Assembly (NCBI GenBank): GCA_947259735.1
Contig: CAMYNN010000006.1
Location: 4,998-68,997, forward strand
Source of the DNA: Thermodesulfovibrionia bacterium
Lineage (GTDB): Bacteria; Nitrospirota; Thermodesulfovibrionia; UBA6902
Length of the DNA: 64,000 nucleotides
Reading direction: 5' to 3'
In this document: one piece after another, positions 2,101-35,461 of the stretch
How the letters are laid out: the number at the start of each line of letters is the position of its first letter
Position numbering within the stretch: position 1 is the stretch's first letter
The notes under the pieces: model-generated
What the model was told of the DNA's origin: nothing
The model's input: the letters and a program-made list of their open reading frames with translations, nothing else
Database searches by the model: none
Translations under genes and position numbers: made by a program

Positions 2101-2270
2101 AAATTACGAATTATTAATTACGAATTACGAGTGATTAATAATTTGCAATTATCTTTTCGCAATTCGTAATTAGTTGTTTGTCATTTGCCCCAGTCCCCGC
2201 GACTTAGATTCACGGCGTGAATCTGTGGGGATCTCAATTCGTAATTTGTCATTTGTAATTCGTAATTATC
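2101..2270. repeat. Composite inverted-repeat element built from AATTACGAATT / AATTCGTAATT units with a central GC hairpin
   Basis: aattacgaatta occurs at about 2102 and 2116. The complementary aattcgtaatt occurs at about 2161, 2236 and 2257. The central hairpin is agattcacg/cgtgaatct (2206-2224), flanked by cccc/gggg. The right end overlaps the last codons (..IITNYK) of the 2249-3700 gene. Confidence 0.75.
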
Positions 2271-18356: not shown

Positions 18357-18836
18357 GTGGATATAGGAATGGAGAAAAAATGCCGGAAAATTCTTGAGAA
18401 ATATTATAAAGAAGAAGGAAACGTCATCTCCATTCTGCAGGATATGCAGGAAGAATTTGGCTATATTCCTGATGATGCGGTGTACTGGTGTGCGAATGAA
18501 CTGAATATTCCTGCCAGTAATTTTTTTGGGGTTGCTACTTTTTATTCCCAGTTTCATCTGAAACCGAGAGGGAGGTATATCATAACGGCCTGTTGCGGGA
18601 CGGCATGCCACGTCAAGGGGGCTGATCCTATTATTCATCGCATGAGGGCCGATCTTGCCCTGGCAGAAGGTGAGACGACCACGTCGGATACCAATTTTAC
18701 ACTGGAAAGCGTAGCCTGTATCGGTGCATGCAGTATGGCCCCTGTTGTTAAAGTAAACAAGAGGATTTATGGAAATGTGACACCCGACAGAGCAACTGAA
18801 CTTATCGATGAATTCAACAACGAGAAGGGGAAGTAA
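18357..18836 (+). CDS. NuoE/HoxE-like [2Fe-2S] thioredoxin-fold subunit
   Basis: CCGTACHVKG...CIGACSMAP motif. The start may instead be the ATG at 18369. Confidence 0.85.
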   Translation: MDIGMEKKCRKILEKYYKEEGNVISILQDMQEEFGYIPDDAVYWCANELNIPASNFFGVATFYSQFHLKPRGRYIITACCGTACHVKGADPIIHRMRADLALAEGETTTSDTNFTLESVACIGACSMAPVVKVNKRIYGNVTPDRATELIDEFNNEKGK

Positions 18837-20634
18837 TGTGGCGGTAAAGAAGTCAGGGCAAAAATCTGCGCTAAAAAATCTGGAAATAAAAGTATGTGTC
18901 GGCACAGGCGGCCTCGCTGCCGGCAGCCAGGATGTTCTGGACAGGTTCGGGAAGCAGCTCAAGGCCCGGGGAATCAAAGCCGGCATCGCAAAGAAATGCA
19001 CTAAAAAAACGGGCTGCCGGGGGCTCTGTGCAAAGGACGTTCTGGTTGACGTTATCCGGAACGGCAAGAAATCAACCTATCAGTTTATCACAGTCGACAA
19101 GGTCAGCAGAATCATAAAAGAGCACGTTATGGAAGGCGTTCCTGTAAAAGACTGGCTTGTCGGTCCGGAATACGAGGCTTTTCACAGCAAGGGGACGAAG
19201 GTCCTTCTGAAGCAATGCGGAGAGATTGACCCTGAAGATATTGAGTCATATATAGAGTCAGGCGGGTACAGGGCAACGCTGAAGGCCCTGAAAATGAAGC
19301 CGGAGGCCGTTATAGATGTTATTAAAAAATCGGGTCTCCGCGGCAGGGGTGGAGCTGGATTTCCGACAGGCCAGAAGTGGGAGCTTTGCAGCAATGCTGA
19401 AGGGAGCCCCAAATACATTATATGTAATGCCGATGAAGGTGACCCCGGAGCATTTATGGACAGGTCCATTATTGAAGGGAACCCTCATTCTGTTTTGGAA
19501 GGATTGATCATCGGCGCCTATGCTTTCGGTGCATCCCGCGGTTATGTCTATATTCGCGCTGAATATCCTGTGGCCATTACCCGCCTGAAGCTTGCTATAA
19601 AAGAGGCAGAGAAAAAAGGCTTCCTGGGAAAAAACATATGCAAGCGAGGCTTTGACTTCGACATCCGGATCAAGGAGGGGGCCGGTGCATTTGTCTGCGG
19701 TGAAGAGACTGCTCTCATCGCCTCAATTGAAGGCGGACGCGGCATGCCACGTTCAAAGCCCCCTTTCCCGGTGTATCATGGACTGTGGGGGAAGCCAACG
19801 GTTGTCAATAATGTTGAAACGCTCTCAACGATTCCCCTGATCATCTTCAAGGGGGCCAAGTGGTTCTCTTCCATCGGCACGGAAACGAGCAAGGGAACCA
19901 AGGTCTTTGCCCTTACAGGAAAAATAAAAAACACAGGCCTGATCGAAGTGCCTATGGGAATTACTCTGAGAGAAATTATTTATGATATCGGCGGTGGATG
20001 CCCCGGGAACAGGGAATTTAAAGCTGTGCAGACAGGCGGTCCCTCAGGCGGCTGCATTCCTGCTTCCTATATTGATATGCCCGTAGATTACGAATCATTG
20101 CAGGAGATCGGATCCATGATGGGCTCTGGCGGAATGGTTGTCATGGACGATACGACCTGCATGGTCGACATGGCAAAGTTTTTCCTGGAATTTGCCCAGA
20201 ATGAGTCATGCGGCAAGTGCCTGCCCTGCCGGGTCGGCAATAAGCGACTCTTTGAGAGACTGAAGGATATTACGGAGGGAAAAGGCAGGGAAGGTGATAT
20301 CGAGTTCCTTCTGTCCCTTGGGGAAGACATAAAAATATCATCCCTCTGCGGACTTGGTCAAACATCCCCCAATCCTGTACTTTCTACTATTAAATACTTC
20401 AGAGATGAATACGAGGCGCATATACGGGAGCACCGGTGTCCGGCAGGAGTATGCCAGGCATTCAGGAAATATGTTGTCAATGCCGCTATTTGTAAAATGT
20501 GCGGAAAGTGCTTCAAAGAATGTCCGGCAGAGGCAATAACGTGGCAGAGAAAACAGCCGGCAATGATAAACAGAGACAAATGCATTCAATGCGGCACCTG
20601 TTATGATGTATGCCCGTTTCATGCAATACTATAA
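18808..20634 (+). CDS. NuoF/HydB-like NAD(H)-binding flavoprotein subunit with an extra N-terminal domain and a C-terminal 2x[4Fe-4S] ferredoxin domain
   Basis: GRGGAGFPTGQKW, ESCGKCLPCR, and C-terminal CKMCGKCFKECP and CIQCGTCYDVCP. The true start may be the GTG at 18838. Confidence 0.9.
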   Translation: MNSTTRRGSNVAVKKSGQKSALKNLEIKVCVGTGGLAAGSQDVLDRFGKQLKARGIKAGIAKKCTKKTGCRGLCAKDVLVDVIRNGKKSTYQFITVDKVSRIIKEHVMEGVPVKDWLVGPEYEAFHSKGTKVLLKQCGEIDPEDIESYIESGGYRATLKALKMKPEAVIDVIKKSGLRGRGGAGFPTGQKWELCSNAEGSPKYIICNADEGDPGAFMDRSIIEGNPHSVLEGLIIGAYAFGASRGYVYIRAEYPVAITRLKLAIKEAEKKGFLGKNICKRGFDFDIRIKEGAGAFVCGEETALIASIEGGRGMPRSKPPFPVYHGLWGKPTVVNNVETLSTIPLIIFKGAKWFSSIGTETSKGTKVFALTGKIKNTGLIEVPMGITLREIIYDIGGGCPGNREFKAVQTGGPSGGCIPASYIDMPVDYESLQEIGSMMGSGGMVVMDDTTCMVDMAKFFLEFAQNESCGKCLPCRVGNKRLFERLKDITEGKGREGDIEFLLSLGEDIKISSLCGLGQTSPNPVLSTIKYFRDEYEAHIREHRCPAGVCQAFRKYVVNAAICKMCGKCFKECPAEAITWQRKQPAMINRDKCIQCGTCYDVCPFHAIL

Positions 20635-20739: not shown

Positions 20740-23436
20740 TTGTCAAAAGACAAAATAAAAATAAAGATAAACGGTAAAAAGATATCGTGCAGTCAGGGAG
20801 ACACGATCCTTGAGGCTGCAAATAAAGCGGGGATTAAAATCCCCACGCTTTGTCACGATTACAGGCTTGAACCATACGGCTCATGCAGGTTTTGCAGTGT
20901 TGAGATCAGGGGAATGCAAAGGCTGCTTCCCGCCTGTACGACACCCGCCGCAGATAATATGGATATTTCCTCAGAAAGCGACACAGTCCAGAGGATAAGG
21001 AAGAGACTGGTGTCTCTCATGCTTTCCAATCACCCCAATGACTGCATGCGATGTGAAGCTGACGGTGACTGTTCACTGCAGGACCTTGCTTATGAATATG
21101 GTGTGGACGGCAGTGAATATGGAGGTGAGAAATGGGATCTGCCGATTCGGCAGGCAAATCCTTTTATAACCTACGAACCGAACAAATGCATTGTCTGCGG
21201 GAGGTGCGTAAGAATATGCAACGAAGTTGTGATGGCAGGGACCATAGATTTTACAGGCAGGGGATTCAATACTGTCCCTGATACGGCCTTCAGGACAGCG
21301 CGTACATTGTCAAACTGTGAATTTTGCGGCCAGTGCGTGTCTACCTGTCCTACGGGGGCGCTGACCGACAAAAAGGGAAGAGGCAAGGGCCGCGTTAAAG
21401 ACTTCAAAAAGGTCCGGACTACCTGTGGCTACTGCGGTACAGGCTGCAACTTCTTTTTAAATGTAAAAGATAATAAGGTTGTGAAGGTTACGTCCGATTA
21501 TAGCGGTCCGGTGAACAGGGGGAACCTGTGCATAAAGGGACGGTATGGGTATGATTTCATACATAGTCCTGACAGAATTACGAAGCCTCTCATCCGCAAG
21601 GGCAAAAAGTTTGTAGAGGTCTCATGGGATGACGCTCTTGATCTGGTTGCGAAGAAGTTCGGTGAAATATTAAAGAAACACGGCCCTGACTCGTGCGGTG
21701 CTTTTTCATCATCACGATGTACCAATGAAGAGAATTTCCTGCTCGCCAAATTTGTCAGAACGGTTTTCAAGACGAATAATGTCGATAACTGCGCTCGAGT
21801 CTGACACGCTCCGACTGTGGCCGGTCTGGCCACCAGCCTGGGAGCAGGTGCTGCAACTAATTCACTGGCCCAGATGCCTGAAATAGATACTCTCTTCCTG
21901 TTTGGTTCTAATCCTACGGAAGCCCATCCTATTGTCGCCATTTATCTGAAGAAGGCCCTGCGGAATGGTGCAAGGCTTATTGTTGGCGATCCTCGGCAGA
22001 CATGGATGGCAAAACGCGCCGATGTATGGCTCAACCTCCGCCCGGGCTCAAACATAGCACTTATAAACGGTCTCGTTCATGTGATACTAAAAAACGGGTG
22101 GGAGAACAAAGCGTTTATCAAGAAAAGGACCGAGGATTTTCAGGAGCTTAAAAAGCATGTAAAGAAATATGACCCTAAAACAGTCGAAAAACTTACCGGG
22201 GTTTCAAAAGATAAACTGACTGAAGCAGCCAGGCTGTATTCTCATGCGGACAAGGCAATGATCGTATACGGCCTTGGTGTTACAGAGCACAGGACGGGGA
22301 CAGAGAACGCAATGGCCATTGCTAACCTTGCCCTTGCCTGCGGTCACATTGGCAGACCTTCAACGGGTATCATGGCTTTGAGAGGGCAGAACAATGTCCA
22401 GGGGGCTTCCGATCTCGGACCCGCCCCGAACATACTCCCCGGATACCAGCCTGTTGTGAACCCCGATGTGCGGGAGAAATTCGAAAAGGCATGGGGTGTT
22501 CCCATTTCACCGAAAGTTGGACTCAAGTCTGTTGAAATGCTTGATCAGGCATGCGGCAGGACATTCAAGGGTCTCTATATTCTTGGAGAAGACCCCGCCC
22601 AGACCGATCCGAATTCCCACGAAGTCCGTCGGGCCCTGCAATCTCTCGATTTTCTCGTTGTTCAGGATATCTTCCATACAGAAACCACAAAATATGCCCA
22701 CGTTATTCTACCGGGCTCAAGCTTTGCTGAAAAGGACGGCACGTTCACAAACGGTGAACGAAGGGTGCAGCGTGTCAGAAAGGCCATTCGACCGCTGGCA
22801 GGAAAGGCGGACTGGCAGGTGATCTGTGAACTTGCTACCCGTATGGGCTATCCCATGAGCTATGCTCATCCGTCTGAAGTAATGGATGAAATTGCGAGTC
22901 TTACCCCGCAATATGGAGGTATAAGTTATGAACGTCTCGAAAAAGTGAGCCTCCAGTGGCCCTGTCCGACCAAGGACCATCCCGGGACAAAGACTCTGTA
23001 TACTGACCTGTTCTCGCGGCCGGGAGGCCTGGCAAAATTTATGGTCCTTGATCATAAGGGCTCGGGCGAAGTTCCGGACAGGGAATATCCTTTCGCGCTC
23101 ATAACCGGCCGTATCCGTGAACACTACAATAACGGTTCCATGTCCAGGAGGGTGGCCGGTATTATGGAACTTGTACCTGAAGAGCATGTCGAGATGAACC
23201 CGGAAGACGCAATGAAGTTGAAAATCAAGGACAATGACTGGTTGAAAGTGGCTTCACGAAGAGGCGTTATTAAAGTCAAGGCGAGAATTACAAAACGATC
23301 CCAAAAGGGAAACCTGTTTCTCACGTTTCACTTCCCGGAAGCCCTCTCGAATTTTCTTACCTCGGAGCACAGGGACCCCATAGCCGGTACGCCGGAATAC
23401 AAGTCCTGTGCAGTGCGGATAGACAAAGTGCAATAA
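20740..23436 (+). CDS. fdhA: Formate dehydrogenase catalytic subunit, selenocysteine-containing (TGA at 21802-21804 read as Sec), with N-terminal NuoG-like Fe-S domains
   Basis: Two track ORFs (20740-21804 and 21817-23436) are in the same frame, separated only by a TGA. The junction reads NVDNCARV-U-HAPTVAGLATSLGAGAATNS, the conserved Sec/Cys active-site context of molybdopterin formate dehydrogenases. The TTG start has an AGGAGG SD. Confidence 0.9.
21808..21845 (+). promoter_or_regulatory. Bacterial SECIS-like stem-loop
   Basis: gtggcc-ggtct-ggccac (21817-21833) begins 13 nt after the TGA and is flanked by gctcc/ggagc. The apical GGUC-type loop resembles the E. coli fdhF SECIS. Confidence 0.6.
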
Positions 23437-24333: not shown

Positions 24334-25920
24334 TTACAGAACTTTTTCTTCTATCCCATATTTCTTTATTTTGTACCCTATCTGCCGTGGAGTGATGCCG
24401 AGAAGCCGGGCTGCCTTCGCCTGGACCCATCCTGTTTTTTCCAGTGCCTCTATGATATTTGATTTTTCGATTTCCCCCACACTGGCAGTCAATGAAGACG
24501 ACTGACTGCTGCTTTTGATGCGGCGGAGGCTGAGAGAAACAGGGAGGTCCGATGCAGTAAGGCGTTCTGCTCCGGACATAATTACCAGCCGTTCAATGGT
24601 GTTTTCAAGCTCCCTCACATTACCGGGCCAGTTGTAACTGAGGAAAACCTGAAGAGCGCTTTTATCAAGGTGAACGGACCGGTTATTCTCAGAGTTAAAT
24701 TTTTTCAGAAAATAATCGATAAGAACCAGGGTGTCTTCTCCTCTCTCACGGAGGGGGGGGAGGAACAGAGGTATTACATTCAGGCGGTAATAGAGGTCCT
24801 CCCTGAATTTCCCGTGCGAGACAAAACTTTCAAGGTTCCTGCTCGTTGCCGCAACGATTCTGACATCAACTTTCATGTTCTTTTCGCTGCCGACACGCTC
24901 GAATTCCCTTTCCTGAAGGACACGGAGTATTTTCGGCTGGAGGGTTATGGGGAGGTCCCCTACTTCATCAAGGAAAATGGTCCCCTTGTGTGCGAGTTCG
25001 AATTTGCCCTTCCGCGATGCAATCGCCCCTGTGAAAGCTCCTTTCTCATGCCCGAACAGCTCTGATTCAAGGAGCCCCTCAGGGATGGATGCACAATTGA
25101 ATTTAATGAAGGGCCCTTTGCTTCTCGGGCTCATATAGTGAATTGCCTTTGCGATCAGCTCCTTCCCGGTCCCGCTCTCACCTCGTAGAAGTACTGTTGC
25201 CTTCGTGGGGGCAACGCGGTGGACAGCCTCAAACACCTCCTGCATCCTTGACGAATCGCCGATCACGTTATCGATACTGTATTTGCCCTTCAGTTCCCGT
25301 TTTAAGATTTCTTTCTCTTTTTCGACTTCTTCATAACTTTCCCATAGCTTGACAAACTGGGCTATCAATGACGCGACAATTTTCAGGACCCTGAGGTCAT
25401 CATCAACGCTGCCCTGTTTTGTTGAATAGATCCTGTCAACGCTGAGCACTCCAAGCGCCTCATTTTTAAGCATAATCGGGATGCAAAGGAAAGATATCCC
25501 GTCTTTTTCCGGACGTGATCCTGTTCTATTCAGAAACAACGGTTCCTGTCCGATATTGGGAATAACCATGGGTATCCTCTTTTCCAGTACCCTGCCGACG
25601 ATGCCTTCTCCAATTCGATATTTTCCTTTTTCGATATTATGTTTTGTAAGACCGTGAGCGGCTACAATACGGAGTTCTCCGGAGTTCTGATCAAGAAGAA
25701 ACACGCATCCCCTCTGCATTTCGAGAAGACTCCCGAGGGTTGACATCACTGAAAGAAGGTTTTTTTCGAGGGCAAAGGAGGTAGTCAGTACTTTGCTCAC
25801 TTCAAGGATCGCAGTAAGCTCCCTGTTTTTCCTGATTGTCAGTTCTGCTTTCTTCCCGCTATCTTTCCCGCTTTTCATAGGGTCCACCTGTTTTGTTGAC
25901 CAGTTTATTTCATGGTACAT
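24334..25920 (-). CDS. Sigma-54-dependent transcriptional activator with N-terminal GAF domain (NifA/FhlA-like architecture)
   Basis: GAF-like N-terminus, AAA+ motifs GESGTGKE and GAFTGA (here EKGAFTGA), and a C-terminal Fis-type HTH ([21 protein letters not shown]). Confidence 0.9.
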
Positions 25921-26047
25921 GTAAGGTATGTCAATAGGAACGCAAAAGAATATGTAATAGTAACATCAGGTTAAGGCAGATATCAATACGACGGTATACC
26001 TGTACGTCATTGGTTCGCATATGAAATGAAAATGATTCCATATAGAG

Positions 26048-26063
26048 TGGCATTCCTTCCGCA
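26048..26063 (+). promoter_or_regulatory. Weak sigma-54 promoter candidate TGGCAT-N5-CCGCA
   Basis: The GG/GC spacing is correct but the -12 element is CCGC rather than TTGC. It lies 128 nt from the activator start and about 310 nt upstream of the ATG at 26374. Confidence 0.3.
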
Positions 26064-26219
26064 ATTGTTTATTTCGTCTGTGAAGGAGTATAATAAAAGC
26101 TGAAATGCAGTCATCTACGTTTGTAGTTTTTTCGACGAAGCATGCCAATGAATCGGTTGAGAAAGGTCAAATTATCAGGAAAAACAGCTAATGGCTTTTA
26201 TTGCCGGTTCATGATTCGC

Positions 26220-26248
26220 TTGACATAGCGCTGTATATTTCTTAAATT
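26220..26248 (+). promoter_or_regulatory. Sigma-70-like promoter candidate TTGACA-N17-TAAATT
   Basis: ttgaca is at 26220-26225 and taaatt at 26243-26248. Confidence 0.4.
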
Positions 26249-26373
26249 AATACTAGTATAAATAATGCGTATGTATGCACCCATATGTTCAGTATTCCCT
26301 GTCCCGATTCAGGTCCTGGATAAACTATATGGATTTTTTTCAATGTGTAAATATAATTAACGGAGTTTTTTAA

Positions 26374-28788
26374 ATGGCAAAAGGTTGTTGTGATACAGGA
26401 AGAGATGACAGAATTAAGAAGTACAATCTTGCAGACTGGCAGATACTCAATCCCGATATCAAGGCTTTCAGTCCCGACGATATTTTATTTGCTCCCCCGT
26501 ACATCAGGAAGCGTAAAAAAGGAATAAATCTGCTGATAGATCCCAAATCCCCTAACTGGATCAGCATAAATAATACGGGAGCTGAAATTATCAAACTGTG
26601 CGATGGCAGGCATACATTGTCGGAAATTCAGGATTCCATATGTAATAAATACGGTCTGACAAACAGGAAGAAAGTCAAAGAAGAGATTTCCCAGTTTATC
26701 AGTGCAGTGGGGTTACTTGAATTTGTATCCGATACGGAATATAACAGGCCGGAATATAAAGGAAGAAGCAGCGCGATTGCTCCCCGTAAACTGGATGAAC
26801 TCTGGCTTTATTATACGATGGCATGCAATCTGCGGTGCAAGCATTGTCTTGTAGATGCAGGAAAGGTCCTGAAAAAGGAATTAACGAACGACGAGTTCAA
26901 AAAGGTTGTGGACGAGGCAATAAAACTTGGCGTCAAGAGGTTCTATATTACCGGTGGGGAACCTTTTATCAGGGCAGGTATTTTTGACCTTATTCACTAC
27001 ATCACCAAAACGAAGAGGCGTGACCTTATTGTTCTTACAAATGCGACTCTTTTCGACGATGAAAAGATAGCTGCACTCAAAAAGGTCATGAGCCCGAAAC
27101 TTCTGGTGCAGGTGAGCCTGGAGGGACCGACTGCCGAAATCCATGATAAACTGCGTGGCAAAGGAAGCTTTGACAAGACGGTGGATGGCATTCAGAGGCT
27201 TATGGGCATAGGAATTACACCCATTGTTTCGACGGCCATAAGCAAACTGAATGAAAAAGATATTGCAAAGACCTCCCGGTTTCTTTCAAAGCTTGGTATT
27301 CAGGAACATAATGTGCTCTGGATGCATGCGAAGGGACGGGGTGCCGATAATTTAAATGAATTATATGTGCCTTCGGAAAATATAGCAAAGGCCATGAAAA
27401 AGGTGAAGAAGGAATACAAGGAGCAGGAAGTTATTTTTGATAATGTGGAGTCCTTGAAAGTCCGGGTGAGAACCAAGAGGGGAAGGAAAAATGACCTTTG
27501 CAATAATTGTTTTGAAAAGATCTGCGTTAATTCTGATGGACATATATACCCCTGTGCCTCACTGAATGGAGACAAAAATTTTGATGCAGGTTCGGTGCGC
27601 AAAAAGTCTTTAAAGGATATATGGTTGAATTCAAAGGTTATGGACAGGGGGAGGGAAAACAGTGTACAGGACAAAGCGGAGTGCCGGGAGTGTTATCTAG
27701 AATACTTTTGCGGCGGCGGATGCACTTCCCATAGCTATTATGCATCTGAAGTGGATAGGGGGAAAGGTTCCATAACTGCAGTCGATCCGTACTGTTCAAC
27801 GTACAAGTCAATGTTTGAGGACATCATCTGGGAACTTGCTTCCGAGGGGGTGGCCCCGCAGAACGGCAAAGGCTACATGGCTCCCCTTGTTTATAATGCA
27901 ATGGATTCGAAACTCCCCGGGCATCTTGGCGCCGGAATTGAATCTATTGATAAAAACTTTGAAGTGGGATGCTACCATTGTTCCTGCGTCCTTTCCGTTG
28001 ATGTTGAGGATGATGAGGAAGTGTGCAAGCCTGAAATCAAGGGGCATGTTACGAAGACAGTAAAGAAGAAATTCTCAAAAGCCGCGTATAATCCTGTTGC
28101 TGACTATTACTGTCCCACGGGATATAATCCGAAGGACCTTTCCCATATCCCGAATGAAGTGCTTGATGTATCCTATGGATGCGGAAATCCTGCTGCACTT
28201 GCAGATATCAAAAAGGGTGAGACGATTGTTGACCTCGGCGCAGGAGGCGGTATTGACTGTTTTATTGCTGCAAAAAAACTGGGCAGGAAAGGCAAAGTCA
28301 TAGGCATCGACATGACCGATGAAATGCTGGAGAAGGCCCGGGAGAGTGCGAAAATCGTTGCAAAAGCCCTGGGTTACGATGTAGTTGAATTCAGGACCGG
28401 TAACATCATGGAACTCCCCGTTGACAGCGATTCTGTTGACCTTGTCATATCAAACTGTGTTATCAACCTTACAGAAGACAAAGCTAAAGTACTGGATGAA
28501 ATATATCGAATATTAAAACCGGGTGGACGGTTTATCATTTCAGACATCGTTTCCGACAAACCTGTCCCGGGATATTTAAAAAGAGACAAGGAGTTATGGA
28601 ACGCGTGCCTTTCGGGAGCACTGACGGACAGGCAGTTTACAGAAGTTGCCCAAAACGCGGGATTCTCGGGTGTTGAATTGACAAATAACTATCTTTATAA
28701 AAAGGTGGAATTTATCGAGTTTTATTCAATTACCCTGAAGGGCAGCAAACCCCGGAAAGTCACTTGCGGGGCCTGTGCCTGTAGCTAG
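26374..28788 (+). CDS. Tripartite fusion: PqqD-like peptide-binding domain, radical SAM/SPASM domain and ArsM-type SAM methyltransferase
   Basis: 804 aa. Residues about 55-118 are PqqD-like (NWISINNTGAEIIKLCDGRHTLSEIQDSI). CNLRCKHC is at 151-158. A SPASM-like motif follows (CVNSDGHIYPC...CRECYLEYFCGGGC). From about residue 563 the ArsM-like motifs are YYCP, SYGCGNP, VDLGAGGGIDC, GIDMTDEML, ISNCVINL, LKPGGRFIISD and LWNACLSGAL. The C-terminus is TCGACACS. Confidence 0.85.
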   Translation: MAKGCCDTGRDDRIKKYNLADWQILNPDIKAFSPDDILFAPPYIRKRKKGINLLIDPKSPNWISINNTGAEIIKLCDGRHTLSEIQDSICNKYGLTNRKKVKEEISQFISAVGLLEFVSDTEYNRPEYKGRSSAIAPRKLDELWLYYTMACNLRCKHCLVDAGKVLKKELTNDEFKKVVDEAIKLGVKRFYITGGEPFIRAGIFDLIHYITKTKRRDLIVLTNATLFDDEKIAALKKVMSPKLLVQVSLEGPTAEIHDKLRGKGSFDKTVDGIQRLMGIGITPIVSTAISKLNEKDIAKTSRFLSKLGIQEHNVLWMHAKGRGADNLNELYVPSENIAKAMKKVKKEYKEQEVIFDNVESLKVRVRTKRGRKNDLCNNCFEKICVNSDGHIYPCASLNGDKNFDAGSVRKKSLKDIWLNSKVMDRGRENSVQDKAECRECYLEYFCGGGCTSHSYYASEVDRGKGSITAVDPYCSTYKSMFEDIIWELASEGVAPQNGKGYMAPLVYNAMDSKLPGHLGAGIESIDKNFEVGCYHCSCVLSVDVEDDEEVCKPEIKGHVTKTVKKKFSKAAYNPVADYYCPTGYNPKDLSHIPNEVLDVSYGCGNPAALADIKKGETIVDLGAGGGIDCFIAAKKLGRKGKVIGIDMTDEMLEKARESAKIVAKALGYDVVEFRTGNIMELPVDSDSVDLVISNCVINLTEDKAKVLDEIYRILKPGGRFIISDIVSDKPVPGYLKRDKELWNACLSGALTDRQFTEVAQNAGFSGVELTNNYLYKKVEFIEFYSITLKGSKPRKVTCGACACS

Positions 28789-28827
28789 GCGGTATTAAAA
28801 TATGAATAAGAAACGAGGTAGGAATTT

Positions 28828-30312
28828 ATGAGAGTCAGCTTAGTAAATGCTCAGGTTTTAGACGGCAATAATGTTGTACCCCCTCTGGGACTGATGTACA
28901 TTGCAGCAGTTTTGGAAAAGGCGGGCCACAAGGTCCAGATATTTGATTCCGACCCTGAATACCAGGACACCATGATGCAGGAAATCAAGGATTTCAACCC
29001 TGATCTGATCGGGTTGAGTTTTTTAACGGTGGCCTATCAAAGGGCATTCAATCTTGCGAAGGCCCTGAAGAAAGAACTTCCCGATGTGACCTATTGTGCC
29101 GGCGGAGTACATCCAACGGTAAAGCCGAAAGAAACATTGACGGAATTTGACGTTGACTTTGTCGTTGTGGGAGAAGGGGAAGCCACGATTGTTGAAGCCT
29201 GTGAAAAGCTGGAGAAAAAAGAAGGAGTTGACGGTGTGAACGGAGTTATGTTCCGTAAGGATGGAGAAATTGTAACTACGCCTCCTCGGGAAATGATTAA
29301 AGACCTGGACTCCATTCCTTTTCCTGCGCGGCACTTGATTGATATGGCGCCATACCTCATGCCACCTGGAATTATCAGGGGGTATGCAGAAAAGAACCAG
29401 ACGACTATTGTTACAAGCAGGGGCTGTCCCTTTAAATGTATTTACTGCGGCAGTCATAATATCTTCGGAAGAAGGACCAGAAGGCGTTCTGTAAAAAATG
29501 TTGTTGATGAAGTAGAACATCTGCATAAAAACTTCGATATAAAGGGAGTCTACTATTGTGATGATACATTTACCCTCAGCTCCAAGTGGGTAAAAGAATA
29601 CTGTCATGAATTAAAGAAGAGAAATCTGAATGTCAAGTGGGCATGCCAGTCAAGGGTCGACCAGACAGACCCTGAGCTCATGAAGCTGATGAAAGAATCA
29701 GGGCTTGTGCAGCTTGATTTTGGCGTTGAAAGCGGTTCTGAAAAAATACTGAAAGTGCTGGGCAAGGGCGGTGCAGGTGACAGGACTTCACAGATAAAGA
29801 AATCCTTTAAACTGTGCAAGGAGCTTGATATCAGGACCCTTGCAACATTTATTATCGGCAATCCCGAAGAGACAAAAGATGACATAGACCAGAGTTTCCA
29901 GGTGGCAAAGGAAATCAATGCTGACTACACGGCATTCTATTTTCTCACCCCTTACCCGGGAACTGACATATATGACATGGCTATAGAAAACGGATGGCTT
30001 GACCCGAACCTGCCTTTCTCCGAGATCTGGGCACACAGGCAGCCGGAGCTCCCTTTAATGGCTATTACCTTTGGAAAGGAAGAGCTCAGAGATATCCGCA
30101 GACATCTGCAGAACCAGTTTTTTACAAGGAATTATCTCAGGAGTTCGGGGAATATCAGTTTCTACTCAATACTGATCAGCATAATCTTCAAGCATCCCGG
30201 GGTAATCCTGGACTGTCTGGGTAAATTTATCAGGACCCGCAGGATAGACTATATTGTAGAGACCCTCAACGCGGAGTACTGGCGGATGAAAAAGTACGAA
30301 GGCGCCGGATAA
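28828..30312 (+). CDS. B12-binding-domain radical SAM enzyme (class B-like)
   Basis: The N-terminus is B12-binding-like (PPLGLMYIAAVLEKAGHKVQIFD) and the cluster motif is TSRGCPFKCIYC. Confidence 0.9.
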   Translation: MRVSLVNAQVLDGNNVVPPLGLMYIAAVLEKAGHKVQIFDSDPEYQDTMMQEIKDFNPDLIGLSFLTVAYQRAFNLAKALKKELPDVTYCAGGVHPTVKPKETLTEFDVDFVVVGEGEATIVEACEKLEKKEGVDGVNGVMFRKDGEIVTTPPREMIKDLDSIPFPARHLIDMAPYLMPPGIIRGYAEKNQTTIVTSRGCPFKCIYCGSHNIFGRRTRRRSVKNVVDEVEHLHKNFDIKGVYYCDDTFTLSSKWVKEYCHELKKRNLNVKWACQSRVDQTDPELMKLMKESGLVQLDFGVESGSEKILKVLGKGGAGDRTSQIKKSFKLCKELDIRTLATFIIGNPEETKDDIDQSFQVAKEINADYTAFYFLTPYPGTDIYDMAIENGWLDPNLPFSEIWAHRQPELPLMAITFGKEELRDIRRHLQNQFFTRNYLRSSGNISFYSILISIIFKHPGVILDCLGKFIRTRRIDYIVETLNAEYWRMKKYEGAG

Positions 30313-30328
30313 GGAACAATTCAAGAAA

Positions 30329-30368
30329 CAAAAAAAAGGAGCGTTGCCAGGCAACGCTCCTTTTTTTT
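30329..30368. terminator. Strong bidirectional Rho-independent terminator
   Basis: An A9 run, then ggagcgttg-ccagg-caacgctcc, then a T8 run. Confidence 0.8.
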
Positions 30369-30424
30369 GTTTCTCCATACTTACTTTATTAAGCACGTCA
30401 ACGGGTTATAATAAAATATTAAAA

Positions 30425-30440
30425 TGGTTACCCACTTGCT
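30425..30440 (+). promoter_or_regulatory. Weak sigma-54 promoter candidate TGGTTAC-N4-TTGCT
   Basis: The GG/GC spacing is correct, the -12 TTGCT is good and the -24 is degenerate. It lies about 140 nt upstream of the ATG at 30578. Confidence 0.3.
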
Positions 30441-30577
30441 GATTTTGACTCCATGTTCAGGGTTTCAAGAAACTTCACTTCTCCCTATCTTCTTGGCCTC
30501 TCTTCCCCGCACTGACGGCTACTGTTAGGGGATCATGCAAATCATACTGTGCAGCATATGAAAAGATCTGAGACTCT

Positions 30578-32995
30578 ATGAGAAAAAATACACTATTCTC
30601 TATTACACTCATTATCGCTATAATGACTGGTCCGACGAAATTCTCTTTTGCGGTTCCTGCAGCCCCGGGTCTATTCGACTTGAGGCAGCCCGACAGCACT
30701 GTTTTCAGAGCACAGCAGCAGGGTGATGAGTGGAACAACAGGGTTGAGACCGCACATGGCTATACTGTGAAAAAACACATTGATGGATACTGGAAATATA
30801 TCTCCCGTTTTGAAAGAGACATCCCCCGTTTCAGCAACGTTCATGCTGACAATAACCCTCCTGCAGGAATTGCCAGGCATCTTCGTCCGGGCATTTTAAC
30901 GAATCCCCGTGAAGGGAGGGATTTGCACCCTGACGGCGCTCCATCCTCTTCTTCATCAGGATTAAAGAGCACCTCTTCTGTTTCAGGAGCGGCTGCTCCG
31001 ACAGGAACATTTAACGGGGCGGTTCTGTTTATTCTGGCAGAGTTCAATGACAGGTCCGGTGTATATACGGAAACGGATTTCGGAATACTTATTTCGAACA
31101 ATATCAATGATTATTTTGACAAGGCATCCTACGGCAGTGTTAATCTGTTTTCGGCCAGTGAAACTTCTGGAACAGCTGATAATGGTGTTGTTGGATGGGT
31201 AAATGTGGGAGGTGATCACCCCGATACGGGAAGTGCCACGGGGACGAAGAACAGGCGCTTGGCCAGGGATGCCATTATTGCCGCTGACCCCTTTATTAAT
31301 TATGCCTCCTATGATTCCGACAGTGACGGGTACGTTGATGCCGATGAACTGGCCGTTGTTGTAATTGTTGCCGGATTTGAGAGGGCATACAGCGCTTCCT
31401 ATACGCCAAGTGTCTGGGGTCATAAGTGGTCTCTTGGCTGGGGCGGAGTGAATGCACCTCGCGTTGACGGGGTGCGTGTCGGCCATGACCACGGCGGTAC
31501 GGGTGGCTATGCTCAGTTTGGAGAAATACACCGGAGCAATGCTTTGAACCAGCATCAGGCAACCATGGGGATTATGGTGCATGAACTGGGGCATCTCATT
31601 TTCGGACTTCCTGACTTGTACGATACCGACGGGTCCTCAGAAGGTATTGGTGTTTTTGGAATCATGGGCTCAGGCAGCTGGGGGAGGGCGTTATCGGATC
31701 CCTATTCCGGAGAGACGCCGGTATTGCCTTCAGCCTGGACTCGATACGATCGTGGCTGGTCAAGCGCATCTGTTTTTTCGGGCTATGCGGCGGTCACAGC
31801 CGCCGGAGCATTATCAGCGACGGGATCAAACTCAGCGTACAAACTTCTTACGTCACTTTCAAATGAATATTTTATTGTAGAAAACAGACAGCCTGTGGGA
31901 TATGACCGGGGTCTGGAAGTTCAGTTGGGAGCCGGATTTGGCGGCCTGGCTATCTGGCATATAGATGAAGACACAATTTCAAGCAAAATAAGCACAAACT
32001 CAGTTAACACAAGTGAATGTTACCCCGGCGGCCCGTCCTGTGATCCCAATCATTACGGCGTAGCCATTGTCCAGGCAGACAATCAATGGCACCTTGAGAA
32101 AGACTCAAACAGGGGCCAGGCCGTGGATTTGTGGAATTCGGGCAATAAAACGAGCTTCGATTCAGTTTCTGCTCCGAATAGTGATCTGTACAGTGGTGCT
32201 CAGAGCTATGTAAGCGTAACGAATATAAGTGCGGCAGGAACGACAATGACTGCTGCATTCAATGCCTATTTACTGGAAATCAACAGGACGGGATCAGGCA
32301 GCGGTACGGTGACGTCCAGTCCTGCCGGGCTCGACTGTGGAAGTAACTGTTTAGAGTATTACGAAAGCGGGACCGTTGTCGTACTGACGGCAACAGCCGG
32401 CGCGGAGTCAGTTTTTGCAGGGTGGAGTGGAGATCCTGACTGCTCTGATGGCTCCGTTGAAATGAGTGACGACAGGACGTGCACAGCAACCTTTGATGTA
32501 CTGCAATATCAGTTAAATACCGATGTAAGTCCTGCCGGCAGTGGGACCATAAGTCCTGACTGTTCATCTGGTTGCCTGTATGACAGCGGCACAATAGTCA
32601 CGTTAACTGCGACAGAGAGCGGCGGCTATTTTTTTGATGCCTGGTCAAACTGTGATTCTCCGTCAGGTAATGTCTGCACAGAGACAATGGATGAAAGCAT
32701 TACCATTACGTCCGGGTTTCTGGGATGCTTTGAGCCTGTCCGGATTGATTACACGACACCAGTGTATTTCAAGACTCTCCAGGCTGCCTATATTGCAGCT
32801 GTTGACGGGGACGTTATCCAGACCCGGGGCGTATCTTTTGTTGGAGACCTGAATGTAAACCGTCAAATATCGGTTACTCTTAATGGTGGATATAATTGCG
32901 ATTATTCAGCTGTTACGGGAACATCCGGCTTTAATGCCACGATGACCGTTGGTGAGGGAACAATTACGATCGGAGAATACATTTTCGGGAACTAG
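30578..32995 (+). CDS. Secreted M6-like (immune inhibitor A-type) metalloprotease with C-terminal Cys-containing repeat domains
   Basis: Signal peptide, HExxH motif (VHELGHLIFGLPDLYD), and two about 75-aa repeats (GSGTVTSSPAGLDCGSNC.. and GSGTISPDCSSGC..) resembling InlB B-repeat-like domains. Confidence 0.75.
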   Translation: MRKNTLFSITLIIAIMTGPTKFSFAVPAAPGLFDLRQPDSTVFRAQQQGDEWNNRVETAHGYTVKKHIDGYWKYISRFERDIPRFSNVHADNNPPAGIARHLRPGILTNPREGRDLHPDGAPSSSSSGLKSTSSVSGAAAPTGTFNGAVLFILAEFNDRSGVYTETDFGILISNNINDYFDKASYGSVNLFSASETSGTADNGVVGWVNVGGDHPDTGSATGTKNRRLARDAIIAADPFINYASYDSDSDGYVDADELAVVVIVAGFERAYSASYTPSVWGHKWSLGWGGVNAPRVDGVRVGHDHGGTGGYAQFGEIHRSNALNQHQATMGIMVHELGHLIFGLPDLYDTDGSSEGIGVFGIMGSGSWGRALSDPYSGETPVLPSAWTRYDRGWSSASVFSGYAAVTAAGALSATGSNSAYKLLTSLSNEYFIVENRQPVGYDRGLEVQLGAGFGGLAIWHIDEDTISSKISTNSVNTSECYPGGPSCDPNHYGVAIVQADNQWHLEKDSNRGQAVDLWNSGNKTSFDSVSAPNSDLYSGAQSYVSVTNISAAGTTMTAAFNAYLLEINRTGSGSGTVTSSPAGLDCGSNCLEYYESGTVVVLTATAGAESVFAGWSGDPDCSDGSVEMSDDRTCTATFDVLQYQLNTDVSPAGSGTISPDCSSGCLYDSGTIVTLTATESGGYFFDAWSNCDSPSGNVCTETMDESITITSGFLGCFEPVRIDYTTPVYFKTLQAAYIAAVDGDVIQTRGVSFVGDLNVNRQISVTLNGGYNCDYSAVTGTSGFNATMTVGEGTITIGEYIFGN

Positions 32996-34504: not shown

Positions 34505-35461
34505 TTACTTAAAGTGTTCATAGCCTTCTGCCTGAAAGGGCGTTTTCTTTCCGTCGGCATCGATTATGTATCGGCCTTTTTTTATTATTTCTCCAATTCT
34601 GTGTGCAGCGGTTCTGTAACCGGGCGGTGCTGTGAAAAGAAGGACATAATCTTCACCGCCTTCTAGAGCAGATTTAAAGGGATCTTGCCCAAGCTTTTTT
34701 GCCATAGTAAGAAGTTCTCTTGACAGGGGGATTCTCTCCTTGTATATCATGGCCCCAACTCTACTCTTCTCACATAGATGGCTCAAGTCAATGAGAAGCC
34801 CGTCGCTGACATCTATCATAGATGTTGCATTTTTTGTACTTTTTAGCGGTGCTGGAAGAGGCATTAAATGTTTCCTGATGAGCTTCAGGCGGTCAGTGGC
34901 CGGTGAAAACCTGTGTACTTTTCTCCGTGATCTTTTTAAAAGGGCCAGTCCCATTGCTGAATCGCCCGTTGTGTCAGCTAAATAGATTCCATCACCTGCT
35001 TTTGCCCCCGAGCGCATCACCGCTTTTTTTGTATGCCCGATCACTGTTCCACTGAGAATGAGTCCTGTTACGGAAGTGCAGGTGTCTCCGCCAATAACTG
35101 TTACATTAAACTTTGCAGCGAGTTTGTTTATTCCAGAGTACATTTCATCAATCTGTCCGGAATCGATGCCCTTTGGAATACCGAGGCTTATGAGAAAATA
35201 TTTTGGGCCTCCCCCCATTGCGAGTATATCACTGATGTTTACAGCGAGGAACTTATACCCGAGTTGAAAGAATGTTGTAAATGAAAGATCAAAGTGCACT
35301 CCTTCAAGCATCATGTCGGAAGTTATCAGTGCATTCTCACCCGGAATATGAACGACGGCGGCGTCATCACCGATGCCGGCAAGAACTCCCGGAGAAAGGC
35401 GGGGACATCGTTTCTGCAGTTTTTTTATTAAGCCGAATTCACCTAATTCTGAAAGTTTCAT
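34505..35461 (-). CDS. thiL: Thiamine-monophosphate kinase
   Basis: 318-aa AIR-synthase-like fold with GDDAAV, DMMLEGVHF and GGD motifs. Confidence 0.9.
   Translation of the reverse strand: MKLSELGEFGLIKKLQKRCPRLSPGVLAGIGDDAAVVHIPGENALITSDMMLEGVHFDLSFTTFFQLGYKFLAVNISDILAMGGGPKYFLISLGIPKGIDSGQIDEMYSGINKLAAKFNVTVIGGDTCTSVTGLILSGTVIGHTKKAVMRSGAKAGDGIYLADTTGDSAMGLALLKRSRRKVHRFSPATDRLKLIRKHLMPLPAPLKSTKNATSMIDVSDGLLIDLSHLCEKSRVGAMIYKERIPLSRELLTMAKKLGQDPFKSALEGGEDYVLLFTAPPGYRTAAHRIGEIIKKGRYIIDADGKKTPFQAEGYEHFK

Follow-up and report, generated by a model that had tools for sequence, protein, structure and literature searches.

A single 804-residue protein of a sulfate-reducer-type bacterium of the Nitrospirota joins a peptide-maturase-like radical SAM enzyme to a genuine arsenite-methyltransferase domain. 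It belongs to a widespread family for which we could find no description, and the gene context of its relatives suggests that it most likely builds an organic arsenic compound by an undescribed route, although this reading comes without any arsenic chemistry and we give it a probability of only about 50%. The gene lies within a 64,000-nucleotide stretch of Thermodesulfovibrionia DNA (the window), and was singled out in a preliminary description based on the sequence alone, which proposed a fusion of PqqD-like, radical SAM/SPASM and ArsM-type domains in an operon with a B12-radical SAM enzyme. Our analysis confirms this architecture.

Domain architecture of the fusion protein and its operon

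The fusion gene occupies positions 26374..28788 of the forward strand (ATG start, TAG stop), and all motifs listed in the preliminary description are present at or very near the positions given there. Pfam searches, with all scores above gathering thresholds, identify PqqD at residues 54-110 (35.7 bits), Radical_SAM at 147-304 (91.7 bits), SPASM at 376-441 (36.0 bits) and Methyltransf_31 at 612-763 (124.9 bits). An AF2 model of the protein has a pLDDT of 86 and a pTM of 0.82. The N-terminal extension (residues 1-20; 26374..26433, forward strand) contains GCC at residues 4-6 with an invariant Cys-Cys pair (C5, C6). This MAxxCC segment is present in essentially all sequences of the Thermodesulfovibrionia clade but absent from the other groups of the family, and the pLDDT is below 50 for residues 1-10, consistent with predicted disorder. 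It is followed by the PqqD/RRE-like domain (26533..26703, forward strand; PF05402, cut-off 23.4 bits), in which D56, P60, W62 and G69 are invariant in groups A and B (see below). Alignment to CteB (5wgg) starts in the RRE of that protein, and a Foldseek comparison with CteB gives a TMt of 0.72. The radical SAM core (26812..27285, forward strand; PF04055) carries CNLRCKHC at residues 151-158, with the CX3CX2C cysteines C151, C155 and C158. The full SPASM domain (residues 376-474; 27499..27795, forward strand; PF13186) has C376, C379, C384, C394, C437, C440, C446, C450 and C474, enough for two auxiliary [4Fe-4S] clusters, and includes CRECYLEYFCGGGC at residues 437-450 (FCGGGC at 445-450). The radical SAM module ends with a C-Y-H-C-S-C motif (residues 533-538; 27970..27987, forward strand) within the linker to the methyltransferase.

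The C-terminal part (residues about 556-796; 28039..28761, forward strand) is a true ArsM-type SAM methyltransferase domain, with SYGCGNP at 600-606, VDLGAGGGIDC at 619-629, GIDMTDEML at 644-652, ISNCVINL at 692-699, LKPGGRFIISD at 714-724 and LWNACLSGAL at 741-750. Against solved structures it matches ArsM at 115-129 bits, versus 49 bits or less for any other methyltransferase, and Foldseek gives an rmsd of 2.4-2.9 A at 33-39% identity to CrArsM (5EVJ), CmArsM (4FS8) and human AS3MT (8XT7). The NCBIfam arsenite methyltransferase model NF008823 scores 251 bits over residues 574-776, missing its 263-bit cut-off by 12 bits. C603, C695 and C745 align with the As(III)-binding C72, C174 and C224 of CmArsM. 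The preliminary description placed cysteines at all four As-binding positions of ArsM; the fourth, the C44-like C580 (YYCPTGY), lies outside that pairwise alignment. Unlike CmArsM, the protein lacks a long C-terminal domain. As in many ArsMs the termini are Cys-rich, but the tail TCGACACS (residues 797-804; 28762..28785, forward strand), predicted to be disordered with a pLDDT below 50, varies in sequence within the clade and is sometimes absent; in one locus a TAA stop precedes CECC.

A second gene (28828..30312, forward strand; 494 aa) starts 39 nt after the fusion stop codon and encodes a protein with an N-terminal B12-binding domain (92.7 bits) and a Radical_SAM domain (87.2 bits) carrying CPFKCIYC. 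The unit is closed by a bidirectional intrinsic terminator at 30324..30374 (A-run, GGAGCGTTGCC/GGCAACGCTCC stem, T-run), with a dG of -36 kcal/mol and a z-score of -10.5, none of 200 shuffles being as stable. Upstream, an alignment of 12 intergenic regions gives the consensus ATTGTGAATTTT..TGTATAATAA, corresponding to a sigma-70-type promoter-like element at 26065..26094 (forward strand; TTGTTT, 18 nt spacer, TATAAT). Apart from a block next to the regulator gene, this is the only strongly conserved block of the region. That regulator gene (24334..25920, reverse strand) is divergently transcribed and encodes a NifA-family sigma-54 activator (GAF, AAA+, HTH; TIGR01817, 584 bits against a cut-off of 529). 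It is present upstream in 13 loci, about half of those of the clade, but a regulatory link is not shown and no conserved sigma-54 -24/-12 element lies in front of the fusion.

Distribution and conservation of the family

The architecture is not rare. At least 568 loci in species-representative genomes encode relatives, spread across many anaerobe-rich phyla, and these fall into three architecture groups (A, which includes the window's Thermodesulfovibrionia clade, B and C), plus split genes and reverse-order fusions. More than 120 clusters at 90% identity have the same full-length architecture, in assemblies from NCBI, JGI, ENA and Logan that include contigs of 2-5 Mb, and 80 genome loci carry one continuous ORF. 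Together with conservation of the linker (residues 475-560), with invariant C538, V539 and L540, this breadth rules out an assembly chimera or annotation artefact joining two genes near 28.0 kb, for which we found no evidence, and shows that the fusion is under selection. In 59 diverse family members spanning 29-99% identity, C151, C155, C158, C538, C603, C629, C695 and C745 are invariant, whereas C580 is invariant in groups A and B but present in only 25 of 59 sequences family-wide. The SPASM cysteines, on the other hand, are only partly kept in group B and mostly lost in group C, so that the radical chemistry may differ between groups. Group B keeps the CmArsM-like C-terminal domain that the window's clade lacks, as well as CC..CC tails.

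Interestingly, the two modules also occur as separate genes and fused in the opposite order, so they work together. Split radical SAM proteins end just after the Cys motif of the linker (proteins P0249, ...YHCACVLSMDAK, and P0255, ...YHCSCVLTV), and so do reverse-order ArsM-to-rSAM fusions (P0252, ...FHCNCALLT; other such fusions are P0257 and P0261). The separate radical SAM module can be found next to glycosyltransferase genes without an ArsM. This, and the invariance of CX3CX2C and the SAM-binding core, argues for real radical SAM catalysis and makes it unlikely that the protein serves plain arsenic detoxification, with the ArsM domain volatilising arsenic and the radical SAM/SPASM module merely supplying electrons, re-reducing catalytic disulfides or being a regulatory or vestigial appendage. 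In favour of this alternative, ArsM needs reduction of its Cys disulfides in each cycle (disulfide-cascade model, cited in PMC8552651) and a MerA-like disulfide reductase is a recurrent neighbour in groups B and C; against it, no efflux, reductase or ArsR genes were seen near the window's cassette, at least among the larger ORFs scanned, which excludes small ORFs of ArsR/ArsC size.

Within the window's clade, the B12-radical SAM gene lies directly downstream of the fusion in all 21 loci with readable downstream DNA, while the flanks vary. The orthologue group of this partner is confined to Nitrospirota and always follows the fusion; its nearest paralogues (65-67% identity) sit in unrelated, possibly lipid-type contexts. 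Among cobalamin-dependent radical SAM enzymes, its best NCBIfam hits are BchE (224 bits), HpnJ (213 bits), the Sden_1168 P-methyltransferase (165 bits) and PhpK (127 bits), all far below cut-off.

Gene context and comparison with known systems

The preliminary description left open a peptide-directed or small-molecule organo-metalloid (As/Se/Te) or thiol-methylation pathway. Of these options, the evidence favours a small-molecule or lipid organo-arsenical pathway. Distant relatives, split forms and reverse-order fusions sit next to the two NCBIfam "arsenosugar biosynthesis glycosyltransferase" families: TIGR04282 (189-206 bits, cut-off 134) and TIGR04283 (222-253 bits, cut-off 182) are adjacent in loci L086, L089, L037 and L045, TIGR04282-like genes are also present in L025, L063, L083/84, L088 and L092, and TIGR04283-like genes in L063 and L093. 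A PiT/PHO4 phosphate/arsenate-type transporter is adjacent in Scalindua, in Zixibacteria (with a PNP_UDP_1 nucleosidase-family gene) and in three Thermodesulfovibrionia loci, and DedA, a LPG_synthase_TM/flippase-like protein, patatin, GDPD and the MerA-like reductase recur. No separate ArsS-like radical SAM gene appears in those neighbourhoods. It should be noted that the "arsenosugar" names of TIGR04282 and TIGR04283 rest on genomic association with ArsS and not on biochemistry of those transferases. Moreover, the window's own clade lacks these transferases and, in most loci, PiT, and its flanks are housekeeping genes with no ars resistance gene seen among the larger ORFs scanned, so that transfer of the functional inference from groups B and C (29-43% identity) to this clade is indirect.

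The arrangement is reminiscent of the arsenosugar pathway, in which the radical SAM enzyme ArsS (TIGR04167) adenosylates DMAs(III) made by ArsM, and of the arsinothricin pathway, in which ArsL forms a C-As bond before ArsM methylation (PMC13598754, PMC12159101, PMC8552651). However, the radical SAM module is not an ArsS or ArsL family member. It is not an ArsS homologue beyond the superfamily core, ArsS not being among the 25 best NCBIfam models (all scoring at least 87 bits), and it has an RRE and a SPASM domain instead of the Cys/Sec-rich C-terminal domain of ArsS. The downstream B12-radical SAM enzyme shows weak similarity to the ArsL model, but at 67 bits this is far below the 450-bit cut-off; it has the canonical CX3CX2C rather than the RCCLKC motif, and no arsQ permease or ars operon context was seen among the ORFs scanned. 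Compared with characterised ArsM proteins, the methyltransferase domain differs in being covalently fused behind a 550-residue RRE/radical SAM/SPASM module. No NCBIfam model reaches its cut-off on the fusion protein, and literature searches found nothing on the family.

The best structural and sequence relatives of the N-terminal half are instead sactipeptide/RiPP maturases (CteB, SkfB, SuiB, and StsB at 161 bits). Residues about 45-475 share the three-domain layout and fold of CteB, SkfB and AlbA-type sactipeptide/ranthipeptide maturases (E = 2e-15 for CteB in the PDB sequence search), and small-molecule radical SAM/SPASM enzymes normally lack an RRE-like domain. This raises the question as to whether the protein might be a peptide or protein maturase, with the RRE-like domain recruiting a substrate encoded elsewhere, the radical SAM/SPASM module cross-linking or oxidising it (sactionine, ranthionine or formylglycine type chemistry), the ArsM-like domain S-methylating a Cys thiol or another nucleophile, and the B12-radical SAM enzyme C-methylating the same substrate. 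The PqqD domain with its invariant DP..PNW motif is consistent with this, as is the common occurrence of B12-radical SAM C-methyltransferases as RiPP tailoring enzymes (ApyD 184 bits and rSAM_ocin_1 102 bits for the downstream protein, both below cut-off). Nevertheless, we consider this reading doubtful. No conserved small ORF lies in or next to the cassette in the 12 aligned upstream regions, the terminator follows the B12-radical SAM gene directly, and neighbourhoods in other groups contain transferases, transporters and lipid genes but no precursor-like, protease or exporter genes. The sactipeptide/ranthipeptide family models score 110-162 bits against cut-offs of 625-850, no RiPP family model comes near its cut-off, and the invariant As(III)-binding Cys triad is unexplained by simple thiol methylation.

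It is also conceivable, but in our view unlikely, that the same type of enzyme acts on a different soft substrate, with the Cys triad binding Sb(III), Se, Te or a persulfide/sulfide species and the two modules performing methyl(thio/seleno)-type chemistry, for example methylation of a chalcogen followed by radical insertion. The host decodes Sec (FdhA TGA at 21802), several ArsM-like selenoprotein fusion families in NCBIfam score 160-170 bits on the methyltransferase domain, no ars genes were seen among the larger ORFs scanned in the window, and ArsM-type enzymes and their relatives can probably accept other metalloids. On the other hand, the domain is closest to characterised As(III) methyltransferases, the context in relatives points to the ArsS-type system, and the AIRS-family neighbour in the window is ThiL, not SelD.

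Inferred route to an organoarsenical

Taken together, our best explanation is that the two-gene cassette encodes an organo-arsenical (more cautiously, organo-metalloid) biosynthetic machine, with the fusion as a non-homologous functional counterpart of ArsS plus ArsM. In the mechanism we infer, As(III) captured by the flexible Cys-rich tails binds the Cys triad of the ArsM domain, where it is methylated with SAM to a methylated trivalent arsenical such as DMAs(III). The radical SAM module then reductively cleaves a second SAM and forms a further C-As bond, which could occur by adenosylation as in ArsS or by attack of a substrate radical on As, with the SPASM clusters handling the electron bookkeeping. 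The RRE-like domain probably docks a peptide segment, which could be a carrier, a partner protein or the enzyme's own Cys-bearing segment, rather than a classical RiPP leader. In the window's Thermodesulfovibrionia clade, the glycosyltransferase partners are replaced by a dedicated cobalamin-dependent radical SAM enzyme, which we infer adds a methyl or alkyl modification to the arsenical or to its carbon or lipid scaffold, giving a clade-specific product.

Domain composition of the fusion protein and identity of its two halves

The ORF at 26374..28788 (+) is real, with an ATG start and a TAG stop, and encodes a protein of 804 aa. Pfam places four domains on it, each above its gathering score: PqqD at residues 54-110 (PF05402, 35.7 bits against a cut-off of 23.4), Radical_SAM at 147-304, SPASM at 376-441 (PF13186, 36 bits) and Methyltransf_31 at 612-763 (124.9 bits). 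The radical SAM cluster motif CX3CX2C is formed by C151, C155 and C158. The SPASM region carries C376/C379/C384/C394, the CX2CX5CX3C block at 437-450, and C474, which is a full set for two auxiliary clusters. A gene encoding a B12-binding domain (PF02310, 92.7 bits) and a radical SAM core (PF04055, 87.2 bits; motif CPFKCIYC) follows at 28828..30312 after a gap of 39 nt, and has its own Shine-Dalgarno-like GAGGTAGG. At 30324-30374, an 11-bp G+C stem flanked by an A-run and a T-run folds at -36 kcal/mol, with a z-score of -10.5 and none of 200 shuffles as stable. The preliminary description of a single polypeptide joining PqqD-like, radical SAM/SPASM and ArsM-type parts, followed by a B12-radical SAM gene and a strong terminator, is therefore confirmed, and its sequence motifs are present at or very near the residues it reported.

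The C-terminal part is an ArsM-type domain and not a generic methyltransferase. Against all PDB sequences it matches arsenite methyltransferases at 107-129 bits (CrArsM 5EVJ, the CmArsM 4FS8 series and human AS3MT 8XT7), whereas the next methyltransferases score 49 bits or less. In those alignments SYGCGNP, ISNCVINL and NACLSGAL superpose on the CmArsM segments holding the As(III)-binding cysteines C72, C174 and C224, which align with C603, C695 and C745 of the fusion. However, the NCBIfam model for arsenite methyltransferase, NF008823, scores 251 bits, 12 bits under its cut-off of 263, and the other ArsM models (NF040538, NF038099 and others) are far below theirs. Several ArsM-fusion selenoprotein families score 160-170 bits. 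By contrast, the N-terminal 475 residues resemble the sactipeptide maturase CteB, including its RRE (PDB sequence E = 2e-15), although no NCBIfam maturase model comes near its cut-off, the best being StsB at 162 bits against 625. ArsS (TIGR04167) is not among the 25 best NCBIfam families for residues 1-560, the lowest of which scores 86.9 bits. An AlphaFold2 model built on 62 sequences is confident (pLDDT 86, pTM 0.82), with only residues 1-10, 544-546 and 797-804 falling below 50. Foldseek returns CteB (TMt 0.72) for the N-terminal half of the model and the ArsM structures 5evj, 4fs8 and 8xt7 for the C-terminal half, at an rmsd of 2.4-2.9 A and 33-39% identity. The product of the downstream gene likewise does not reach the cut-off of any of the characterised equivalogs that it resembles, scoring 224 against 481 for BchE, 213 against 578 for HpnJ, 127 against 600 for PhpK and 67 against 450 for ArsL.

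A family with three architectures

A word-indexed protein search found more than 120 clusters (90% identity) of 792-822 aa at 65-99% identity, nearly all of which come from Nitrospirae/Thermodesulfovibrionia MAGs in four independent data sources. A scan of one genome per species found at least 568 loci, and an exhaustive HMMER search found 1752 representatives at E <= 1e-30; this last count includes single-domain relatives, but a large share of the top 150 are full-length fusions. The fusion is not a chimera, and we put the likelihood of an artefact at about zero. A conserved neighbour cluster of about 85 aa turned out to be shadow ORFs inside the fusion gene.

Three groups emerge. Group A, the window's clade (Thermodesulfovibrionia, about 800 aa), has an invariant N-terminal MAxxCC, a full SPASM, an ArsM core without the long C-terminal domain, and a variable Cys-rich tail that is sometimes missing. 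In one locus, L018 (4330-4390), a TAA stop lies immediately before a still-readable CECC tail (KPGKA*CECC); since the stop codon is TAA this is a recent truncation and not selenocysteine, showing that the tail is dispensable or decaying in some lineages. Group B (about 820-880 aa, 35-43% identity) is found in Scalindua and other anammox bacteria, Acidobacteriota, Gemmatimonadota, Planctomycetia, Zixibacteria, Dadabacteria, Latescibacteria, Nitrospinota and some Thermodesulfobacteriota, and keeps a CmArsM-like C-terminal domain ending in CC...CC. Group C (about 1050-1120 aa, 29-35% identity) is found in Desulfobulbaceae, Desulfocapsa and Desulfurivibrio, including the cultured Desulfurivibrio dismutans AMeS2 and Hydrosulfovibrio ferrireducens CB1MN. 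Its members (for example loci L051:7968-11321 and L053:7947-11225) carry an extra C-terminal DUF5714 domain (190-210 bits) rich in CxxC motifs, and have lost most SPASM cysteines. The SPASM cysteine set is not conserved in groups B and C.

Across 59 sequences from all groups the invariant cysteines are C151/C155/C158, C538, C603, C695 and C745, and C629 is conserved in 58 of 59. C580, a C44-like position outside the pairwise alignment with CmArsM, is invariant in groups A+B (consensus LCCPTGY) but is present in only 25 of the 59 sequences family-wide. The two modules also occur in other arrangements, either as separate genes (the proteins P0249 and P0255 are RRE-rSAM-SPASM only, 45-46% identical to residues 36-544) or fused in the reverse order (P0252, P0257 and P0261 run ArsM then rSAM). 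This is classical Rosetta-stone evidence that the modules act in one process. The split and reversed forms end right after an H-C-x-C motif, and the invariant C538 therefore belongs to the radical SAM module.

Gene context in the Thermodesulfovibrionia clade and in more distant relatives

In the window's clade the fusion is followed by the B12-rSAM orthologue (78-88% identity) in 21 of 21 loci with readable downstream DNA; the apparent exception, locus L019, is a 100-N assembly gap. The top 120 homologues of the B12-rSAM are all Nitrospirota at 65-100% identity. Those at 65-67% are the nearest paralogues and lie in a different context, so they do not provide an independent tie to arsenic. In the Nitrospirota loci L090:5254-9952 and L091:929-9954 they form clusters of two to four B12-radical SAM genes with a class III aminotransferase, near LytB-UbiA, ketoacyl synthase or Fe-S assembly genes. 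A second, divergent B12-binding/radical SAM-like gene with weak Pfam hits lies in the window itself at 45458-46987 (-), about 15 kb from the cassette.

Everything else around the cassette varies. A GAF/AAA+/HTH activator of the NifA family, at 24334-25920 (-) in the window (TIGR01817, 584 bits against a 529 cut-off), lies divergently upstream in 13 loci. No nif genes are in the window, where the activator sits between a formate dehydrogenase operon and the fusion cassette. Although the window has TGGCAT-N5-CCGCA at 26048-26063, no related locus conserves a -24/-12 element, which does not support sigma-54/NifA control of the operon; instead, a sigma-70-like TTGTGA-N18-TATAAT block is conserved (window 26065-26094). 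A further strongly conserved block at about 25945-25985 (consensus AATAATACTAACATCAGGTCAAG.CTTATATCAAC) lies just upstream of the start of the NifA-like gene in 11 of 12 aligned loci, and may be an operator or promoter of the regulator. Elsewhere the flanks are pentose-phosphate genes, GAPDH/PGK, SmpB, pyruvate kinase, HemD-CobA, or a DUF47-PiT transporter pair. Directly after the terminator, at 30578-32995 (+), lies a gene for an 805-aa protein with a signal-peptide-like N-terminus, an HELGH zinc-protease-like motif and InlB B-repeat (Flg_new_2) domains, but it is conserved next to the cassette in only 2 loci.

The rest of the 64-kb window, among the larger ORFs scanned, is housekeeping (Lon, ThiL, RecA, AlaRS, RsgA, a formate dehydrogenase and others). 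The formate dehydrogenase alpha subunit at 20740-23436 (+), which follows NuoF-like (18808-20634) and probably NuoE-like genes, is split into two ORFs by an in-frame TGA at 21802-21804 in the motif CARV-TGA-HAPTVAG. This is the classical selenocysteine site, so the host decodes Sec. However, the AIRS-family gene at 34505-35461, which could have provided a selenium link, is ThiL (280 bits against a cut-off of 184) and not SelD. Another soft substrate for the enzyme (Sb, Se, Te or S) remains possible, but we consider it unlikely. Two tandem MttB-family methyltransferase paralogues at 652-2088 (-) and 2249-3700 (-) have uninterrupted ORFs; an Rfam PYLIS_3 match at 1035-1134 (-) (39.3 bits against a gathering score of 38) lies inside one of them without an in-frame TAG, and probably reflects coding-sequence homology in a non-pyrrolysine MttB relative rather than a pyrrolysine insertion element.

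The N-terminal half has the layout of a RiPP maturase, which raises the question of a peptide substrate. No precursor peptide gene was found: small ORFs in 25921-26373 and 30300-30600 are not conserved, the gap between the two cassette genes is only 39 nt, a terminator follows the B12-rSAM, and no precursor is evident in the neighbourhoods of relatives. Nevertheless, the conserved RRE-like domain, with D56, P60, W62 and G69 invariant in groups A+B, is the least explained feature of the protein, and keeps a peptide- or protein-directed function alive as the main rival, albeit a doubtful one.

The functional lead comes from more distant relatives. Directly beside group B and C fusions, split rSAM genes and a reverse-order fusion lie members of TIGR04282 and TIGR04283, both named 'arsenosugar biosynthesis glycosyltransferase' by NCBIfam. 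In locus L086 the order is TIGR04283 (238 bits, cut-off 182), DedA, a MerA-like reductase, the fusion and TIGR04282 (206 bits, cut-off 134). In L089 a flippase-like gene and a split rSAM gene are followed by TIGR04283 and TIGR04282 (253 and 200 bits), in L037 the order is TIGR04282, fusion, patatin-like lipase and TIGR04283 (189 and 235 bits for the two transferases in that order), and in L045 the fusion is followed by a fused TIGR04283+TIGR04282 gene (222 and 192 bits). Further adjacent TIGR04282-like genes occur in loci L025, L063, L083/84, L088 and L092, and TIGR04283-like genes in L063 and L093. The 159-aa ORFs next to the transferases in L045 and L093 are not homologous. Other recurrent neighbours are PiT/PHO4 transporters, in eight anammox (mostly Scalindua) loci, in Zixibacteria (there with a PNP_UDP_1 nucleosidase-family gene) and in three clade-A loci; DedA and LPG_synthase_TM/flippase-like proteins; patatin and GDPD; thioredoxin-like plus DsbD; and a MerA-like FAD disulfide reductase directly upstream in L036, L073, L075 and L086. 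In Scalindua (locus L027:3953-7845, and also L028, L030 and L033) the fusion ends an apparent operon in the order AhpD-like, PiT, a 505-aa membrane GT2 (cellulose synthase-like), DUF3179, a 475-498-aa protein with no Pfam family, and then the fusion. No ArsS-like radical SAM gene is seen in these neighbourhoods. TIGR04282 and TIGR04283 appear to have been defined originally by association with the radical SAM family now called ArsS, which adenosylates DMAs(III) made by ArsM to give 5'-deoxy-5'-dimethylarsinoyl-adenosine (PMC13598754; Cheng et al. 2021 and Xue et al. 2019 as cited in PMC12159101 and PMC8552651). The window has no homologue of these partner genes, and the association with the transferases is not seen in its clade.

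A possible route to organoarsenicals

The most economical reading of these data, to which we assign a probability of about 0.5, is that the family is a fused, non-homologous counterpart of ArsS+ArsM active in organo-arsenical biosynthesis. In this reading the ArsM domain binds and methylates As(III) on its Cys triad and the radical SAM module forms a further C-As bond, while in groups B and C transferases and lipid-handling proteins elaborate the product in the style of arsenosugars or arsenolipids. In the window's clade the partners are different, namely a private B12-radical SAM enzyme and no transferases, and the end product is therefore probably different; the functional transfer also rests on relatives that are only 29-43% identical. 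The disordered CC-bearing termini fit metalloid capture or relay, but this is an inference. Detoxification with the radical SAM part as an accessory module seems improbable. A more speculative and, in our view, unlikely possibility is that the RRE / radical SAM / SPASM / ArsM family is a new class of C-As bond-forming enzyme, unrelated to ArsS and ArsL, which through its RRE-like domain would perform metalloid chemistry on a docked peptide, carrier segment or lipid-linked substrate. In Thermodesulfovibrionia, together with its private B12-radical SAM partner, it would then make a so far unknown arsenic-containing metabolite in strictly anaerobic bacteria, one possibility being an arsenolipid of the arsenic-containing fatty acid or hydrocarbon type.

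No NCBIfam (release 20.0) model reaches its cut-off on the fusion protein, and sources name it only 'methyltransferase domain-containing protein', 'radical SAM protein with SPASM domain' or 'PqqD family peptide modification chaperone'. Full-text searches found no paper on an rSAM-ArsM fusion or on DUF5714, and a phylogenomic ArsM study mentions only an ArsM-SelD fusion. Pathways that combine a radical SAM enzyme with ArsM are already known, but the radical SAM subfamily, the covalent fusion, the RRE and the B12-rSAM partner are, as far as our searches show, undescribed. Only two radical SAM routes to carbon-arsenic bonds are known, ArsS for arsenosugars and ArsL for arsinothricin, and both work with a separate ArsM. 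The fusion would be a third, non-homologous solution, in which the radical SAM and ArsM catalysts share one polypeptide. It is common in anoxic-environment lineages such as Thermodesulfovibrionia, anammox Scalindua, Desulfobulbaceae and Desulfocapsa, Acidobacteriota, Zixibacteria and Dadabacteria, and metagenomic surveys that score arsM by HMM would presumably count these genes as plain arsenic methylation. It would also be an unusual use of an RRE-like domain and a SPASM module outside peptide maturation.
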